64,000 bases of DNA, taken from the NCBI GenBank assembly GCA_028714495.1, contig JAQTMH010000002.1, positions 7,219 to 71,218 on the forward strand. The letters are read 5' to 3'. Below are positions 2,362 through 53,550 of the stretch, piece after piece. The notes below the pieces were generated by a model. It saw nothing but the letters and a program-made list of their open reading frames with translations. It ran no database searches and had not been told where the DNA came from. The translations under genes and the position numbers were made by a program. Origin of the DNA: Patescibacteria group bacterium (lineage in GTDB: Bacteria; Patescibacteriota; Patescibacteriia; JAHIZJ01). Each line of letters opens with the position of its first letter. Position 1 is the stretch's first letter.

Positions 2362-3807
2362 ATGGATCCAACGGAAAAAACAATTAAAGGGGAATCGCGG
2401 GAAAAATGGTATACCCAGGGTTTTAACGCGGTGCCGGCCTTTATTGTACCGAGCGCCTGGAGTGGTTTTACCATGAAATCAACACTTGGATTTGGCTATT
2501 CCAAGTTTCTTTTTCATTTCAAAAATGATTATTGCGAAATGCGTTACTTAAAATCTGATATGCGCCGTAACTGGCTGAAGATACAAAAAATATTGAAAGT
2601 AAAGCCCGACTATTTTATCAAAATGAGGCGACTTTATAAATCAAGATTTCAGGAATATCTGACGGCTTTTTCATCTATCGATCGTCAGAATTTGGCTTCA
2701 TTGTCCGATCGTGAACTTTTTAACATGCTTAAACGTTGCGTAGAAGCCCAGATTGAATCGGTTGGTACAAGCCATCTGATTGAATCAGCGGGTTCTGCCC
2801 TGGAAGCTGAATTTGCCAAACATCTTACCGAAATAGTTCGTGATAAAAAAAAGTTTAATCTATGCTTTAGTATCTTAACCACTCCCACGGCTCTTTCGTT
2901 TGTCAGCCGGGAAGAACGCGACTTGCTGAAAATTAAAAAACTTAAGTATGGACGAAGGAACGCGGCCCTGAAGAGACACTATTTTCAATATCATTGGATT
3001 CGCAACAGCTACGTTGAAGAAAAAAAACTGTCAGTGGAATATTTTTCACGCCGGCTAGACAAGCTTCAACCCGCATCAACCAATCTAGCGGCACCCCGGC
3101 GAAAAAAGGCAAAGCTGATAAAAAAACTTAGCTTAAACCGCTCCGCCGTCCAGCTGATCAAATGGATTGATACTTGCACGATCTGGCAGGACGAAAGAAA
3201 AGAAAACGTCTTACGCTCTATCACCTATCTGGGGCGCGTATTAAATGAGATTAGCCGCCGCTCAGGCCTTCCTCGTAATTATCTGCACAATCTTAGTTCA
3301 CTGGAAATGCTGAAATTAAGCTCGGTCCGTGAGATTATATCGCTAAAAAATATTTTAGCAAAACGTTCACGAGGCTGTTTTATCCTGGCTAAACCAACCA
3401 GTGAAATATTTTTCTACGGGAAGAATTACAATGCCTTAGGCCAAGTCAAGAAGATTTCCTCCCAATCTCTAGTCGCCTCCAGCGATGAACTTCATGCTAC
3501 CACCGCCAACGTGGGCACGGCGATTGGTCGAGTCATTGTCTGTAAAGGCCTTGAATCCCTGAAAAAAGTAAAGCCTGGAGATATAATAGTCACCTCTATG
3601 ACGCGACCGGAATTCGCTCCGGCATTAAAAAGAGCCGCCGCCATCATTACGGACGAAGGCGGAATTACCTGCCATGCCGCTATTGTTGCTCGTGAGCTGG
3701 GCATACCCTGCGTCATCGGCGCAAAAATTGCCACAAAATTATTTAGAGACGGTATGATTGTTGAGGTCAGGGCAAACCACGGAATAGTAAAAATACTGAA
3801 GTACTAA
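2362..3807 (+). CDS. PEP-utilising enzyme mobile-domain protein (phosphoenolpyruvate synthase / rifampicin phosphotransferase-like C-terminus)
   Basis: C-terminus GDIIVTSMTRPEFAPALKRAAAIITDEGGITCHAAIVARELGIPCVIG is the PEP-utilising enzyme mobile (phospho-His) domain. I place the start at the internal ATG 2362 (MDPTEK...), not the upstream 2224. Confidence 0.6.
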   Translation: MDPTEKTIKGESREKWYTQGFNAVPAFIVPSAWSGFTMKSTLGFGYSKFLFHFKNDYCEMRYLKSDMRRNWLKIQKILKVKPDYFIKMRRLYKSRFQEYLTAFSSIDRQNLASLSDRELFNMLKRCVEAQIESVGTSHLIESAGSALEAEFAKHLTEIVRDKKKFNLCFSILTTPTALSFVSREERDLLKIKKLKYGRRNAALKRHYFQYHWIRNSYVEEKKLSVEYFSRRLDKLQPASTNLAAPRRKKAKLIKKLSLNRSAVQLIKWIDTCTIWQDERKENVLRSITYLGRVLNEISRRSGLPRNYLHNLSSLEMLKLSSVREIISLKNILAKRSRGCFILAKPTSEIFFYGKNYNALGQVKKISSQSLVASSDELHATTANVGTAIGRVIVCKGLESLKKVKPGDIIVTSMTRPEFAPALKRAAAIITDEGGITCHAAIVARELGIPCVIGAKIATKLFRDGMIVEVRANHGIVKILKY

Positions 3808-7036: not shown

Positions 7037-7105
7037 AGAGGATTCATCCCTTCCAAAGCATCCCCGAAAATTGAATTTTCGGGGACGTCATATAGTCTGC
7101 TAGTA

Positions 7106-26528: not shown

Positions 26529-26700
26529 AAATGTATTTAAAAAATCTGCTTTCCCGCAGACATAAAAAGGTTATTATTTACCTCGGAAGGCTTATTTTTA
26601 ACCCCGTACCGGAGCGTTAGCGACTGGTATAGGGACCCTCTGTCTGCGGTATTTATCCTATTATATCAAATGAGCAATTTGTGTCAAATATTAAGAAATA
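26529..26700 (-). promoter_or_regulatory. rplJ leader region (possible L10(L12)4 autoregulatory structure) plus promoter
   Basis: Roughly 170-nt untranslated leader with complementary CUGCGG/CCGCAG and repeated UGUCUGCGG segments. Assigned by position only. Confidence 0.25.
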
Positions 26701-47723: not shown

Positions 47724-48670
47724 AGATTTTTTACCTTTCTCTGGAACCTTTTTGCGATGAAAGATAAAATGATGCCTAGAGCTGCTAGCCCATATCCAAT
47801 AGTAACATTGTACCAACCCAGAAAATTTCCTAGAAAGCCGAAGACAATCAAAACAATCGCGGTGATTCTTAGAATTAGGATAGTTTGAAAAGAAGACAAC
47901 CTCTTGCCCTTAGTTTTCTTTTCGCCTTGATCAATTATCGCTGGCTGATCTCCGCGAATCATATTGACAAAGGCGCTTTCTAAATCCACCGCCCGAGTAT
48001 GCTGCTTGATCGCCGCGACTGTATCCACCGCGATAATCCTGCCTTTGTGCATTATCGCCACCCGGTCGCAGAGCTTTTCCGCGTCAGCCATTTCGTGGGT
48101 TGAAAGAATTACCAGCCTGCCTTCTCCCCTGACCCGCTGGATAAACCTCATGACTGTTTGCGAAGCTAAAACATCCAAACCGGCAGTCGGCTCATCGAAA
48201 ATTATCACTTTTGGGTCGTGAATCACTGATCGGGCAATGGCCAGTTTCTGCTTCATGCCGGTTGAATATTTGCCAGATCGTTTATCGGCAAAATCCCGCA
48301 TATCCAATAAATCAATCAATTCATTTATCCGGTTTTCCAGCTTTTCGCCCGCTAAGCCATAGAGTTCGCCGAAATACCTGAGATTCTCACGGCCGGTAAA
48401 ACGTTCATAGACTCCAATTTCAGTAGTTAATACGCCGACATTCTGCCTAACTTCTTTGGATTGTCTAGAAATATCAAAACCAGCTACCTCGGCTGTACCT
48501 GAGGTTGCCTGTAAAACCGTGGCAATGACTCGAATCGTCGTGGTCTTCCCCGCGCCGTTTGGCCCCAATAATCCAAATACTTCCCCGGATTTAGCCTGCA
48601 AACTTACATTATCAACGGCTGTAAAGGTATTAAATTTCTTGACTAAATTCTTGATATCGAGAAGTAACAT
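47720..48670 (-). CDS. ABC transporter ATP-binding protein with unusual C-terminal two-helix membrane extension
   Basis: Walker A GPNGAGKTT, signature YSTGMKQKLAIA, Walker B IIFDEPTAGLD. C-terminal ILILRITAIVLIVFGFLGNFLGWYNVTIGYGLAALGIILSFIA. Confidence 0.8.
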   Translation of the reverse strand: MLLLDIKNLVKKFNTFTAVDNVSLQAKSGEVFGLLGPNGAGKTTTIRVIATVLQATSGTAEVAGFDISRQSKEVRQNVGVLTTEIGVYERFTGRENLRYFGELYGLAGEKLENRINELIDLLDMRDFADKRSGKYSTGMKQKLAIARSVIHDPKVIIFDEPTAGLDVLASQTVMRFIQRVRGEGRLVILSTHEMADAEKLCDRVAIMHKGRIIAVDTVAAIKQHTRAVDLESAFVNMIRGDQPAIIDQGEKKTKGKRLSSFQTILILRITAIVLIVFGFLGNFLGWYNVTIGYGLAALGIILSFIAKRFQRKVKNL

Positions 48671-49249
48671 AGTCCTATAGCATATCAAATTTATACTTAT
48701 TGTTCAAACCAAGGTACCAAAAAAGAGGAACAACGGAGTGTTTCTTTCCTACCGTGGCGGTTCAACCGAAGCGGTTTTTTTCTACCCGGCTTAGCCGATT
48801 TTTTACTTCCGACTTCTACTCGGCTTTAGCCGAGGGTCTCAAAGGCTTTAGCCCTGATAGTCTATCATAATCTATCCAACCCTTACTATCCTCACCAGTA
48901 TCAATAACTGAATATACCAATTTCCGTGCGTATTCTTCACCAAATTTATCTTCAATCTGTCGATAACTAGAAAATGGATTTTCTCTCAATTCCTGAAAGG
49001 TATTTACCTCTTTTCACCACACTACCTTCTAACTGACTTTAGTCAGGTTGGTAATTTAGTAGCGATAACCCCGCCCCCATCCTAACATAGGCCGCAGATG
49101 ATAGACGCTAAACCGCTAGGCGGCTTCGCCTTATGACCATTATATACCAAGGCTGTGGTTGGGATGGAGACGGGGTTATTTGCGGTGACTTCGACGTCGG
49201 CCTGACTATGGTTATTTACTTTTACCCATTATTTTTGCTAGTTCTATGC

Positions 49250-49645
49250 AAATAAAAAATGGGGCACCGAGTATGATCCCCTTACTTACCTTAGCTCGGT
49301 CGCCCCATGCCCGGGTTTCGTAATGAACAATCGCACTCGCTTGCGCGCTATATCAGTCCCGATTTGCGGGACGACTCCCGGTTAAAGGAGGGAGGATTTA
49401 AACCTCCTGCGCACTAGGCAGCCAACCTGACGTGAAAGGGTGAAACACCTTTTCCTCGCCCGCGAGGCTAGCCAGTCACCTCCTTTTCTCTTTGCCGTCG
49501 CCAGCACGGCGAGGCAAACCACACGCGCTTGCTTGTGGACTCTCGGACCCTAGGGACCCGAGAATGAGCATGCCTAGAGCCGTTTCCAGCCTAGGCACTA
49601 CTATCATATATTAATATAAAAACTTGTCAACCTAGGGGGTCGGGA
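49250..49645 (-). ncRNA. Candidate structured non-coding RNA (unassigned family) with its own promoter-like element and intrinsic terminator, immediately downstream of tRNA-Pro
   Basis: Roughly 400 nt, G+C-rich, with no credible ORF. Many stems (GCCUAGGCUGGAAACGGCUCUAGGC, GGAGGUUUAAAUCCUCC, GCGAGG...CCUCGC). GUGAAAGGGUGAAACACC-like motif on the opposite strand. Terminator-like GGGGAUCAUACUCGGUGCCCC plus U-run near 49255. TTGACA-N16-TATGAT on the minus strand near 49600-49640. Confidence 0.25.
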
Positions 49646-49681
49646 CAAGTTTGAAAATATGGCATTCCCACCTTTCTCCAG

Positions 49682-49755
49682 TCGGGGTGGAGAGACTTGA
49701 ACTCTCGACCTCACGCACCCGAAGCGTGCGCTCTAGCCAACTGAGCTACACCCCG
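49682..49755 (-). tRNA. tRNA-Pro (anticodon CGG)
   Basis: Reverse complement CGGGGTG-TA-GCTC-AGTTGGCTA-GAGC-G-CACGC-TTCGGGT-GCGTG-AGGTC-GAGAG-TTCAAGT-CTCTC-CACCCCG-A folds as a canonical 74-nt cloverleaf. No encoded CCA. Followed by a hairpin/T-run terminator. Confidence 0.85.
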
Positions 49756-50654: not shown

Positions 50655-51833
50655 TTAGGACGCCATCGGCCATTCATCAGCGTCTGTCTGATCAGCCGGA
50701 TTATCCGTCTGACCAAATTCATTCGCTGACTGACCAAAGAGCATTTCACCGGCGATTTCCTTCAAGGTGGCCAGGACGCGATCATGGCCAATCCCTGATT
50801 CCTGGGTTCTTGTGTAATCAACCGCCCTGATTACCACCTCGAAATCACCAACCGAATTCCACTCCTTTAGGTGACAGGCAAGGCGATCCAGTTCAGCCGG
50901 ATCAGCCAGAGCGCTTTCAACCAGTATCTGATCCAGTACGCGCCAATCACCTACAACCGCTACCAGTTTGTCCGCCTGTCTCTCCCAGAAGCGGCGGCGA
51001 GCCTCCTGGACCATATGGTAGGCAATCCAGAAAAGCGTCGTGTACACCGGGTCGGGATCCCTGCGCCTGAGCCAGTCAAACATTATCTGCGTGATCTCAT
51101 GGGCCTTGACTAGGCGCTTGAGTGGAGGCTTTTTGCCCCAGCCACGCAGGATTTCGACCAAGCGGTGATGATCCTGCGGATCACCCGGCAAATCGCACGC
51201 GTAGGCGATGTCTGAAAGCACCCTCCAACCGCCCACATCAACCGCGATGTTATGCAGGCAGTCTCCCGGACTGACCGCGGCTGAAGCCAATTGATTCTGG
51301 AGGCGGCTTGTGAACAACGGCTGAGTAGTTTCAGCAGGGTTATGCCCCTTCCCGCCTAAATCAGGAAGTTCAGTCTGTCTGTCAGGTTCAGCGGTTTGGT
51401 CAATCGACGACCCTTTCAGCTCATGAGTTGGGCCTGACCGTTCCAGATTGCCCTGATTGTGACCGATGGCGCGGAACAACGCGGCATTCACAATCAGCCG
51501 GAACAGCGCTGGATTTACTGACCGAGGAATGAAACCGTCGGCTCCGCACTGTCTCGCTGCTTTACGGCACATCGCGTGGTTCTGACCGGCCGGGATATTA
51601 GCCATCAGATAAATCGGGGGCCGCAAAATCAGCCTAAGCTTCTTGCTTTCCTGGACCAGGCGCAGACCAGGCGATTCATCAGATTCGGCTAAGACTAGAT
51701 CGGGCTGAAAGCAAGAGATCATAGTCAGGGCTGAGGCCAAATCGGACGCGCCGCAGACCTCAACCCCAGCCAGCAGATCGGAGTAACTAGCCAAACGACC
51801 CAGATTGATGTCAAATACCAGGATTCGTTCCAT
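50655..51833 (-). CDS. Response-regulator receiver (REC-like) domain protein with large uncharacterised C-terminal domain
   Basis: N-terminal RILVFDIN...PDLVLAES...PIYLMANIP...GADGFIPRSV follows the CheY-like (beta-alpha)5 pattern. The phospho-acceptor position is atypical. G+C-rich. Confidence 0.45.
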   Translation of the reverse strand: MERILVFDINLGRLASYSDLLAGVEVCGASDLASALTMISCFQPDLVLAESDESPGLRLVQESKKLRLILRPPIYLMANIPAGQNHAMCRKAARQCGADGFIPRSVNPALFRLIVNAALFRAIGHNQGNLERSGPTHELKGSSIDQTAEPDRQTELPDLGGKGHNPAETTQPLFTSRLQNQLASAAVSPGDCLHNIAVDVGGWRVLSDIAYACDLPGDPQDHHRLVEILRGWGKKPPLKRLVKAHEITQIMFDWLRRRDPDPVYTTLFWIAYHMVQEARRRFWERQADKLVAVVGDWRVLDQILVESALADPAELDRLACHLKEWNSVGDFEVVIRAVDYTRTQESGIGHDRVLATLKEIAGEMLFGQSANEFGQTDNPADQTDADEWPMAS

Positions 51834-52118
51834 GACCCAACCTCCTCTTTGTGACTCATAATAAAAAGAGCCTCATTAGAGGAGGCGTCATTTCTAGGGA
51901 CTAATCCTTATTGTCCCTGAGCTTTGTAACTATAACCTTGATGCCGGTTACGCTACTGGCTCCCGATGAACTGTACCCCTTAGCTAAAGCTATGGGGTAA
52001 AGCGTCCAAATTCAGTTCATCGTTCGACGCCTCATCATTACTACCCTAGTGTTTCCAGGATAGTAAAAAAACATTAGCATATTGTTTTCAGAATGTCAAG
52101 CCCCTGCGGATACTGCCC

Positions 52119-52147
52119 TTGACTAATCAAATCTTTGCTGATATTAT
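52119..52147 (+). promoter_or_regulatory. Sigma70-like promoter TTGACT-N17-TATTAT driving a short plus-strand unit
   Basis: Seen directly. Downstream leader has a 9-bp hairpin CTCCAGCGG...CCGCTGGAG that partly sequesters a GGAGGG Shine-Dalgarno. Confidence 0.45.
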
Positions 52148-52232
52148 GGAATGCTCTTTTACAAATAGACATTCTCTCCAGCGGGGAGCGTAGAAACCAT
52201 ATTCCGCTTTCTCCGCTGGAGGGAATCGAAGG

Positions 52233-52298
52233 ATGATGGCCAAAATCATCGAATCACGAGTTCGTCGCGTGGTTCGCTCCTTCACTCTCCGGGCTTAA
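52233..52298 (+). CDS. Candidate 21-aa leader/micro-peptide MMAKIIESRVRRVVRSFTLRA
   Basis: GGAGGG lies 9 nt upstream of ATGATG. It sits in a promoter-to-terminator unit. Not in the ORF track (<60 aa). Confidence 0.25.
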   Translation: MMAKIIESRVRRVVRSFTLRA

Positions 52299-52317
52299 GC
52301 AACTAAACAGCAAAGCC

Positions 52318-52470
52318 ATGCGGTTTCTCTTCCTGCTCGTACTGACCATCATTCTTCTGAAGCTCTTTCTGCCTGAACTTGCCATCCCCGCCATTGAAAT
52401 CCTCCACCGACTGTTGACGATCCTTGGCGAGTTCCTTAAGCAGTTCACAAGTTCTATCCCCGGCATTTGA
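52318..52470 (+). CDS. Candidate 50-aa hydrophobic peptide MRFLFLLVLTIILLKLFLPELAIPAIEILHRLLTILGEFLKQFTSSIPGI
   Basis: Lies between the leader ORF and the terminator at 52493-52534. No obvious SD. Competing minus-strand ORFs (52303..52509, 52254..52502) overlap. Coding strand uncertain. Confidence 0.2.
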   Translation: MRFLFLLVLTIILLKLFLPELAIPAIEILHRLLTILGEFLKQFTSSIPGI

Positions 52471-52492
52471 TGCTGGAGATAGACACACCTCG

Positions 52493-52534
52493 AGCGCCCC
52501 AAAGACCATCTGGTCTAGGGCGCTCTTTTCTTTG
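52493..52534 (+). terminator. Intrinsic terminator GAGCGCCC-(nested loop)-GGGCGCTC plus TTTTCTTT
   Basis: 8-bp G+C stem with an inner AGACCATCTGGTCT hairpin in the loop, followed by a T-run. Confidence 0.5.
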
Positions 52535-52576
52535 CCATAGAACCAATAAAAGTGATGAGTAGAAGATAATCCTTTG

Positions 52577-52612
52577 GTAACTACATTATCGAAGCCTAGG
52601 GCAAAGACCCGC
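52577..52612. repeat. Direct repeat copy 1 (about 36 nt, GGTAACTACATTATCGAAGCCTAGGGCAAAGACC)
   Basis: Near-identical copy at 52745-52780 (GGTTATTACATTATCGGAGCCATAGGCAAAGAAC). Each is followed by a local hairpin. Confidence 0.5.
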
Positions 52613-52744
52613 CGAAGGCCGCTTTGAATAACCTATTTGATGGTGAAAAGAAATTACTGCTTAGTGAAGTAAGTGTAAATAACTGGTGACCGGAGGCGGG
52701 TAAACAATTTGCTACGCCAAAAGGTAAATAAATGCCATAATTTG

Positions 52745-52780
52745 GTTATTACATTATCGGAGCCATAGGCAAAGAACACC
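52745..52780. repeat. Direct repeat copy 2
   Basis: See copy 1. Spacing about 168 nt in a non-coding G+C-rich stretch. Confidence 0.5.
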
Positions 52781-52965
52781 CGTACCACTTCGGGTACGGG
52801 GCAGGCTGCCGAGCCCCGGCCTTAAGTGCCGAGGGGAGGCGGGTATGGTTAATTAATCACCCCCCGGTTGATATTGGAGATGCCGGATCAGGTCCGGCAT
52901 GACTACTGTGTGGTATCTTCAAGCCAAAGCAAATTCCGCCCAAGGTTCAAGCACTTAATAAAAAA

Positions 52966-52994
52966 CAACAGCCCCGTCTTCCAGGGCCGTTGTC
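52966..52994 (-). terminator. Intrinsic terminator (ACAACGGCCC-loop-GGGGCUGUUGU followed by UUUUUUAUU on the minus strand)
   Basis: Lies 10 nt downstream of the micropeptide A stop. Confidence 0.55.
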
Positions 52995-53003
52995 TCTAGT
53001 ACC

Positions 53004-53051
53004 TTAGCAAGTGCAAGGATCATTGCCACAGGTTGGGCATGGTTCTGTCAT
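53004..53051 (-). CDS. Cys-rich micropeptide, 15 aa: MTEPCPTCGNDPCTC (CPxCG knuckle)
   Basis: AAGGAGA lies 8 nt upstream of ATG. Possible -10 TATAAT with adjacent TG at 53087-53094 (minus strand); the putative -35 is poor. In-frame stop 7 codons upstream, so no longer ORF exists. Strong terminator immediately downstream. Not in the ORF track (<60 aa). Confidence 0.35.
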   Translation of the reverse strand: MTEPCPTCGNDPCTC

Positions 53052-53265
53052 GGTGGAAATCTCCTTATATTAATGACTTTAAGAATATTATACAGTATTT
53101 TCCTTTTTTAAAAAACAATATTTTTATGGCTAACATTAGTCAATTTTTAGATATTATACAATATAAATATTACCTATTTACCTAATAAATGCCTTGTTTT
53201 TATTGCTTATTTACATATTTCAGCTATAATTAGAGCATAATGTTAATAACTTATTAAGGAGACGT

Positions 53266-53550
53266 ATGTCGAAATCAATGAGTAAGTCTCAGCTACACGC
53301 GCTTCTGGCCGAGAAATCAGGACGCTCAAAAAAAGAGGTCAGTGATTTCCTGGACCTATTGGTGACCACCGCCTACAACGAAGCAAAAAATGGCGGCGAG
53401 TTTTCACTGCCAGGTCTTGGTAAACTGGTCAAGAAGCATCGCGCAGCTCGTCAAGGACGCAACCCTGCCACTGGAGCCACTATCCAGATCCCGGCGAAAA
53501 CGGTTTTGAAGTTCCGCGTGGCCAAAGCAGCCAAAGACGCGATTCTCTAG
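53266..53550 (+). CDS. hup: HU family DNA-binding protein
   Basis: GRNPATGATIQIPAKTVLKFRVAKAAKDAI matches the HU/IHF arm signature (GRNP.TG). Promoter TTGCTT-N16-TATAAT and AAGGAG RBS upstream. Confidence 0.9.
   Translation: MSKSMSKSQLHALLAEKSGRSKKEVSDFLDLLVTTAYNEAKNGGEFSLPGLGKLVKKHRAARQGRNPATGATIQIPAKTVLKFRVAKAAKDAIL

Follow-up and report, generated by a model that had tools for sequence, protein, structure and literature searches.

A crowded intergenic region of a Patescibacteria genome probably holds four separate small units, including a c-di-GMP-II riboswitch leader

Riboswitches of the cyclic-di-GMP-II (c-di-GMP-II) class, RF01786, were reportedly described by Lee and colleagues in 2010. 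The hok/mok and tisB transcripts are type I toxin mRNAs, and agrA/agrB lie beside dinQ. PrrF1 and PrrF2 are tandemly duplicated small RNA (sRNA) genes, and elements of the REP and BIME types are intergenic repeats. Haloarchaea have CPxCG zinc-finger micro-proteins (for example PMC2253796, PMC10117724), with described sizes of about 40–70 amino acids (aa). Elements that bear comparison with each of these systems lie side by side in a stretch of 64 000 nucleotides (nt) from a Patescibacteria group bacterium (contig JAQTMH010000002.1), which is called the window below. The region in question is the gap of ~1.4 kbp between a minus-strand gene for a 392-aa protein and the plus-strand HU gene (53266–53550), in which there is no long open reading frame (ORF). 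Three relatives were informative when compared with this gap: L001, a sister strain with blocks 95–99% identical to the window; L022, a locus encoding a receiver (REC) protein 37% identical to the 392-aa protein; and L023, which shares only the N-terminal domain of that protein and has kept the gene order. We consider it likely that the gap is a crowded intergenic region composed of four separate units, namely a riboswitch leader, a unit encoding a 50-aa protein (ORF50), a segment with direct repeats, and the terminator of a four-cysteine (Cys4) peptide gene. Their coordinates are given in Table 1. A first-pass annotation of the same interval had treated these features as one regulatory-looking locus; they do not make up a single switch and turn out to be several independent small elements. 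The most secure content of the region is ordinary.

The first-pass annotation also held that nothing annotated explains the locus. For its initial 230 nt this is incorrect, since they are the minus-strand leader of the 392-aa gene and carry a c-di-GMP-II riboswitch. The match to RF01786 spans the full model (positions 1–84 of 84), and a search of the whole gap against Rfam (E<=10) gave no match apart from this one. The P3 loop of the 111-nt aptamer contains an inserted hairpin of 28 nt, and the 3' end of the aptamer lies 99 nt ahead of the AUG of the 392-aa gene on the same strand. The pseudoknot joins ACGC in the P3 loop to GCGU in the 3' tail; the Rfam alignment has GCAC/GUGC as the consensus, so both sides are changed and the pairing is kept. 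The identical pair, ACGC/GCGU, is present in the L023 aptamer. Between the window and L001 the aptamer shows zero substitutions, with flanks that vary and an equal RF01786 score, and the orthologous aptamer of L022 scores 60.2 bits. In all, the aptamer was found upstream of homologues of the 392-aa gene in five other Patescibacteria loci; the homologous proteins of L022, L023, L026 and L029 share 37% identity or the REC domain only. Aptamers ahead of homologues in L023, L026 and L029 reach 42.8, 42.1 and 38.9 bits, respectively, and stay under the threshold of 53.5 bits; no aptamer was found in L027 or L028. The promoter of the riboswitch transcript, of the sigma-70 type, is put forward as a predicted site, because the promoter scan did not list it. 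Its positional counterparts are strong promoters, TTGACA-17-TACAAT in L022 and TTGACA-17-TACCAT in L023. The leader belongs to a riboswitch class that is already known, but the class is unreported for this host group, and the gene association is newly seen; a literature search gave no paper connecting the c-di-GMP-II class with Patescibacteria.

Mutually exclusive pairings were found in the expression platform downstream of the aptamer. The aptamer 5' segment GAGGCGUC (52033..52026) is complementary to the switching strand GACGCCUC, and a small terminator, GCCUC-loop-GAGGC (51886..51870) followed by UCUUUUUAUU, was listed by the terminator pattern scan. When the window and L022 were folded together with RNAalifold, the GAGGCGUC/GACGCCUC antiterminator helix was predicted unprompted, with one compensatory pair. 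Both the platform sequence and its pairing are conserved in L022, the counterpart of the antiterminator pair in L023 is AGGCAU/AUGCCU, and forcing the helix raises the energy to only 2.5 kcal/mol above the minimum free energy (MFE). From the complementarity between aptamer and platform, the RNAalifold helix and its low cost we infer a ligand-induced OFF switch, acting via termination and/or masking of the Shine-Dalgarno (SD) sequence. Without ligand, GAGGCGUC would pair with GACGCCUC and would thereby prevent the small terminator with its U-run as well as the sequestration of the SD by the CCUCCUCU:AGAGGAGG helix. With c-di-GMP bound, the aptamer would retain GAGGCGUC, the terminator or the SD-sequestering helix would form, and the 392-aa gene would be off.

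The product of this gene is a hypothetical protein, an identical copy of which is encoded by a metagenome-assembled genome (MAG) of Patescibacteria, and a second MAG encodes one that is 90–91% identical. An AlphaFold model of the 392-aa protein (pLDDT 77.6) was compared with known structures using Foldseek, and the best matches were receiver domains (target TM-score about 0.8). The N-terminus is assigned with confidence to the receiver fold. The whole protein has no Pfam or NCBIfam match, and its C-terminal helical domain has no match. Residue 50 is Glu (PDLVLAE), and the consensus of the family at this position is Asp (PDLVLAD), the phospho-acceptor. Judging from this residue, the REC domain may be a phosphorylation-independent pseudo-receiver. 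The repeated link between the riboswitch and one orphan REC family offers a way into second-messenger signalling, which is poorly known in Patescibacteria, and into what the protein family does.

The promoter of the ORF50 unit and that of the riboswitch transcript stand back to back, and a relaxed scan gave no other strong site on the plus strand. L001, L022 and L023 have retained the –35 and –10 positions of the ORF50 promoter, with spacers that differ. It would yield an mRNA of ~380 nt ending at a strong intrinsic terminator, which is conserved in L022 and L023 and was missed by the pattern scan because its loop is long. The protein encoded between them is hydrophobic (hydropathy >2 over residues 1–25) and has homologues in the syntenic places of L022 (50 aa, with 28 of 50 residues or 56% identical) and L023 (51 aa, 52% identity), two distant relatives; 20 residues are invariant across the aligned proteins. 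ORF50 is regarded as a coding sequence because its nucleotide differences from L022 favour third codon positions (19, 13 and 32 at positions one to three) and because every other frame is interrupted in that comparison. A word-indexed protein search gave no homologues of ORF50, a profile gave a single cluster, and there are no paralogues in the 64-kb window and no similarity to plasmid-borne toxins. The promoter, the 50-codon hydrophobic ORF and the strong terminator after it had all been proposed in the first-pass annotation, and all three are confirmed here. So is its opinion that the minus-strand ORFs over the unit are artefacts, since stop codons interrupt them in L022; this verdict extends to the antisense ORFs annotated in L001 and on a Logan contig. 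ORF50 is a previously unannotated but conserved membrane protein gene, whose mRNA structure appears to be under selection.

Relative to shuffled sequences, the folding z-scores of the ORF50 mRNA are –7.1 for the window and –7.7 for L022, and independent single-sequence folds of the two share one architecture. In the 5' hairpin H1, the two arms (52171–52187 and 52210–52226, 17 nt each) are 88% complementary; the comparison with L022 gives 23 pairs, of which three are compensatory and none is broken. A hairpin of 9 bp overlapping the GGAGGG had been proposed earlier; it exists, with GGAGGG in its 3' arm, but it is larger, at ~18 bp in the MFE fold. The long-range helix H2 encloses the ORF50 start and joins the surroundings of the upstream AUG to ORF50 codons 10–13. 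It is present in the single-sequence folds of both the window and L022, and its 12–15 pairs are kept in three lineages. A further hairpin, H3, lies inside an upstream ORF of 21 codons and has compensatory changes in four of its seven pairs. Over the whole window–L022 alignment, 18 of 74 pairs are compensatory and 0 are broken, compared with 0–4 compensatory pairs in slid control structures; the three-lineage alignment contains 21 pairs with compensatory changes. This covariation, derived from few sequences that also served to define the structure, is supportive and does not amount to statistical proof. The fold would govern mRNA stability and/or translation. L001 carries a 197-nt insertion in the apex of H1 (L001 1117–1313, corresponding to window 52185–52204), which lengthens the rod (z –8.5) and could be either a palindromic insertion resembling a miniature inverted-repeat transposable element or a variable RNA domain.

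To judge from sequence comparison, the last hairpin of the interval terminates a minus-strand gene for a Cys4 peptide of 15 aa, which is conserved. The stem of this terminator is altered in L001 with its pairing kept, and a promoter-like site for the micro-ORF lies at 53115–53143 on the minus strand. The peptide is identical in L001 (L001 314–361), and L022 has a related version of 17 aa (about 1258–1311). A degenerate scan, in which only ATG, C-P-x-C-G-x-x-P-C-x-C and a stop codon were fixed, gave five metagenome loci (L017–L021) with the same type of peptide, synonymous differences, and promoters and terminators of their own. The micro-ORF is thus present in eight loci in total (the window and seven others) on Patescibacteria-like contigs, with 15–17 aa and the consensus xxxPCPTCG[NK]DPCTC. 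It adjoins HU in three of the eight loci and a glutaredoxin-like gene in two, and it is without annotation in every one of them. The peptide may be a metal-binding micro-protein, and at 15 aa it belongs to a size class that standard gene callers miss.

The segment between the plus-strand terminator of ORF50 and the minus-strand terminator of the Cys4 gene contains two repeat units. Two direct repeats of 36 nt, each followed by a hairpin of its own, had been described here before. The repeats are real; the 5' boxes are actually 42 nt long and 79% identical, and each unit has a second, 3' box as well (78% identical, with the 11-nt core GGAGGCGGGTA). The hairpin is present behind the second copy, with 8 bp, and the first copy has a stem of only 3–4 bp. 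A 24-nt core of the repeat occurs twice in the 64 kb, compared with 0.00 occurrences expected, the copies being 168 nt apart; there are no further copies in the window, and an nhmmer profile of the repeat box revealed none in any locus. Nothing related was found in the collections searched. When bacterial and archaeal contigs, one genome per species, were scanned for the pattern of the repeat core, there were 11 matches, all at chance level and in unrelated taxa; one of these matches, in CPR3, is a mere hairpin plus SD. The JGI metagenomes and IMG/VR contained no match to the core, and a blastn search with the gap gave none in phages or plasmids.

No other part of the region is conserved as little as the repeats. 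Homology to L001 continues in a block up to 52605, and the 347 nt that follow are replaced in L001 by a different mosaic of 302 nt, which again holds two copies (69 nt, 93% identity). L022 has a faint relative of the segment at most, and L023 has none. Folded on both strands, the repeat units are no better than shuffled sequences (z –0.05 to –2.1). Unit 2 is terminator-like on the minus strand, and an extended –10 element (TGcCATAAT) precedes it on the plus strand. Given the replacement between strains, the lack of a folding signal and of an Rfam match, and the absence of relatives, we regard the repeats as a young, duplicated spacer prone to recombination. A recently duplicated spacer of this kind, possibly with backup terminators or sRNAs, is the most likely explanation. 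The repeats match no known family. A CRISPR array and the antitoxin repeats of a type III toxin-antitoxin (TA) system were considered and rejected, as there are two copies only, 168 nt apart, and no cas or toxin genes are adjacent. Resemblances to dif/Xer sites, a nut-like boxA, hammerhead cores and motifs like those of the signal recognition particle RNA were judged by eye and dropped, because only 6–10 nt resembled each motif. The resemblance of the terminator tail to the repeat core, as an inverted repeat, was likewise set aside, being at about chance level for a 1.5-kb region.

Table 1. Features of the intergenic region and its borders in window coordinates; positions in descending order are given for features read on the minus strand
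Feature	Position	Strand	Details
392-aa gene	50655..51833	minus	ORF; N-terminal receiver (REC) fold, disordered linker, C-terminal all-helical domain
SD AGAGGAGG of 392-aa gene	51849..51842	minus	Can pair with upstream CCUCCUCU; paired in MFE fold
Expression platform	51889..51860	minus	Switching strand GACGCCUC (51889..51882), small terminator, U-run UCUUUUUAUU
c-di-GMP-II riboswitch aptamer (RF01786)	52043..51933	minus	Rfam 58.9 bits; gathering score 53.5
Riboswitch transcript promoter (predicted)	52099..52071	minus	TTGACA (52099..52094), 17 nt, TAATGT (52076..52071); read from sequence
ORF50-unit promoter	52119..52147	plus	TTGACT-17-TATTAT, 10/12, TG extension
H1, 5' hairpin	52171..52226	plus	~18–23 bp; 3' arm carries GGAGGG
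H2, long-range helix	52228..52357	plus	GAAGGAUGAUGG (52228–52239) pairs with CCAUCAUUCUUC (52346–52357, ORF50 codons 10–13)
Upstream 21-codon ORF	52233..52298	plus	Start conserved, peptide and length not; contains covarying hairpin H3
ORF50, conserved 50-aa hydrophobic protein with N-terminal transmembrane helix	52318..52470	plus	Conservation and hydropathy
Stop-codon hairpin of ORF50	52453..52483	plus	13 pairs, 5 compensatory relative to L022
ORF50-unit intrinsic terminator	52492..52533	plus	Stem GAGCGCCC/GGGCGCTC (52492–52525), then TTTTCTTT to 52533
Repeat unit 1	52573..52702	unassigned	5' box 52573–52614, 3' box 52680–52702
Repeat unit 2	52741..52845	unassigned	5' box 52741–52782, hairpin 52779–52800, 3' box 52823–52845
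Cys4 micro-ORF intrinsic terminator	52997..52955	minus	16-bp stem, then U6
15-aa Cys4 micro-ORF MTEPCPTCGNDPCTC	53051..53004	minus	SD AAGGAGA (strong); just outside the reported interval

The main alternative to a duplicated spacer is that the repeat units belong to a new family, either as two paralogous sRNA genes comparable to PrrF1/PrrF2 or as structured RNAs acting in cis. The two-copy arrangement is kept in the window and L001 despite the replacement of the sequence, an ACCCGCC...GGCGGGT pairing around a variable segment is conserved, and promoter and terminator signals are present in part, as the extended –10 ahead of unit 2 and a plus-strand terminator after unit 1' in L001. However, unit 1 is without a promoter, neither unit has a terminator in the window, the paired boxes are identical in sequence and offer no covariation, and the failure to fold better than shuffled sequences and to match anything in Rfam, the genome and metagenome collections, phages or plasmids speaks against genes of this kind; we consider the idea rather doubtful. 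By analogy with known systems, the repeat units or a nearby RNA might instead supply the antitoxin sRNA or sRNAs of a type I TA system, in which ORF50 would be a membrane-active toxin and its mRNA would be kept inert by H1 and H2. ORF50 is indeed hydrophobic, as the first-pass annotation had noted in proposing a toxin of this type, and it is a conserved protein with one transmembrane helix, smaller than the limit of about 60 aa for such toxins. The mRNA is also highly structured with a conserved structure, H1 occludes the SD-like GGAGGG, H2 pairs the upstream-AUG region, and tandem small units adjoin the ORF50 unit, much as agrA/agrB adjoin dinQ. The antitoxin did not materialize: neither an antisense nor a nearby antitoxin RNA was found, there is no antisense promoter-like site inside the unit or at its 3' end, and complementarity between the repeat units and the ORF50 mRNA, estimated with RNAduplex, does not exceed that of shuffled controls. 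Moreover, L023 retains ORF50 and lacks the repeat units, and the absence of paralogous copies from the 64 kb and of similarity to plasmid-borne toxins speaks against such a system. We therefore hold a type I TA system to be unlikely.

Another reading, which draws on the first-pass annotation, is a single plus-strand attenuator in which an Arg/Val-rich peptide of 21 aa controls ORF50, with protein-binding repeats arrayed behind it. The 21-codon ORF exists, GGAGGG lies at a suitable distance from it and inside a hairpin, and a short inverted motif, ATAAT-N12-14-ATTAT, is present in the repeats. The ORF, however, has 21 codons in the window, 9 in L022 and 17 in L023, and the peptides are unrelated past the first residues. 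The ORF probably does not encode a functional peptide, and the changes in its interior are those of an RNA hairpin, four pairs being compensatory. Neither the pattern scan nor the fold gave a hairpin with a U-tract between 52233 and 52318. A leader-peptide attenuator is rejected because the upstream peptide is not shared and because no terminator stands between the upstream ORF and ORF50. When conservation of the micro-ORFs is set beside that of the RNA structure, ORF50 and the fold are conserved and the 21-codon peptide is not. A protein-binding array fares no better, as the repeats number only two, are limited to this lineage and differ between sister strains. Comparison has largely refuted this reading, and we regard it as very unlikely. 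The remaining suggestion, that the repeats and hairpins of the window are remnants of a diversity-generating retroelement (DGR), that is, of its template repeat (TR) and variable repeat (VR), arises from L022, where a complete DGR (L022 2051–4583) is present as an insertion in the stretch that separates the riboswitch from the ORF50 unit. This element consists of a 213-aa target gene with the VR (2562–2684), the TR (3049–3171), an Avd gene and a reverse-transcriptase gene; the TR/VR pair is 123 nt long, and 11 of its 12 mismatches are at template adenines. The L022 DGR lies on the opposite side of ORF50 from the repeats, the mismatches between the window repeats are of mixed type and not adenine-specific, and a tblastn search of the window with the reverse transcriptase, Avd and target proteins of L022 gave no match. 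As the nucleotides and proteins of the L022 DGR region are without counterpart in the window or L001, we take the suggestion as refuted and give it hardly any chance.

Several points weigh against the arrangement of four separate units as we describe it. All promoters and all 5' and 3' ends in the interval are predictions made from sequence only, the covariation is based on two to three lineages only, and the explanation of the repeats is built largely on negative evidence. RNAalifold drops every pair that does not fit all of the sequences, so that the proportion of paired cells in its structure is inflated. The start of H2 is ~28 nt past the ORF50 AUG, and for this reason the helix need not block initiation. 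SD use is only moderate in the genome of the window, and a missing SD before ORF50 consequently says little. Taken together, the position of H2 and the moderate SD use suggest that the ORF50 fold may serve stability or the presentation of the start site rather than repression. For the riboswitch, ligand identity and OFF polarity are inferred only, and no GG(D/E)EF motif occurs within the 64-kb window. It is conceivable, if quite improbable, that bacteria of the candidate phyla radiation (CPR), which have reduced genomes and are probably episymbiotic, carry their own subfamily of c-di-GMP-II-like aptamers, whose ligand is host-derived c-di-GMP or another compound, and that ORF50 is co-expressed from the back-to-back promoter in the same response. 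All that the data show in this respect is the conserved link between aptamer and gene and the absence of GGDEF motifs from one 64-kb window. If it were true, the cell would sense a cyclic dinucleotide that it may not make itself.

Some other elements of the window were recorded in passing. Beside the gene for tRNA-Pro (49681–49755), at about 49250–49620 on the minus strand, there is an RNA candidate of ~370 nt with no ORF and a high G+C content. It has TTGACA ahead of it, a strong terminator at its end and a folding z-score of –5.9, and it carries a T-loop-like GGTTCGAATCC or GGTTTAAATCC. The L001 counterpart is 88.5% identical, with four compensatory and 0 broken pairs out of 105; the candidate has no Rfam match and is absent from L022. 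Next to it, a second strain-variable intergenic segment (48641–49251) measures 610 nt in the window versus 69 nt in L001 and holds three short palindromes of the GGCTTTAGCC type (48780–48850). A perfect hairpin of 30–37 nt, GCRTCCCCGMAAATTGAATTTKCGGGGACG, is found in unrelated places of the window (7056–7092) and of L001 (419–455), about 90% identical, and may be a dispersed hairpin repeat. At 26529–26667 on the minus strand, RF00557, the leader of ribosomal protein L10, scores 44.4 bits against a gathering threshold of 44; this is an ordinary feature.

The four units differ in how closely they approach the described systems. The repeats resemble PrrF1/2 or REP/BIME elements in being two diverged copies placed side by side between convergent genes, mosaic in structure and variable among strains; unlike REP elements they are neither dispersed nor palindromic, and they lack clear promoters and terminators. 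The ORF50 mRNA shares with hok/mok and tisB a hydrophobic ORF of ~50 aa in a structured and conserved mRNA, an upstream short ORF, an SD-like element buried in a hairpin, long-range pairing of the 5' region and a strong terminator. It differs from them in that no antisense or trans-acting antitoxin RNA was found, in that ORF50 is single-copy and only a candidate toxin, and in that the upstream ORF neither overlaps nor abuts ORF50 in all lineages. Like the haloarchaeal micro-proteins, the Cys4 peptide has a CPxCG knuckle, together with a CxC that brings it to four cysteines; it differs in being bacterial (CPR), in having only 15–17 residues and in being a putative metal binder. The riboswitch leader departs from known c-di-GMP-II riboswitches in its Patescibacteria host, the 28-nt hairpin in the P3 loop, the ACGC:GCGU pseudoknot and the orphan REC-family target, and related CPR copies score 39–43 bits, under the Rfam threshold. 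In its P1–P3 helices and pseudoknot, its position in the 5' untranslated region, its platform with a terminator and a helix able to sequester the SD, and its full-model match above the threshold, it is like the members of that class.

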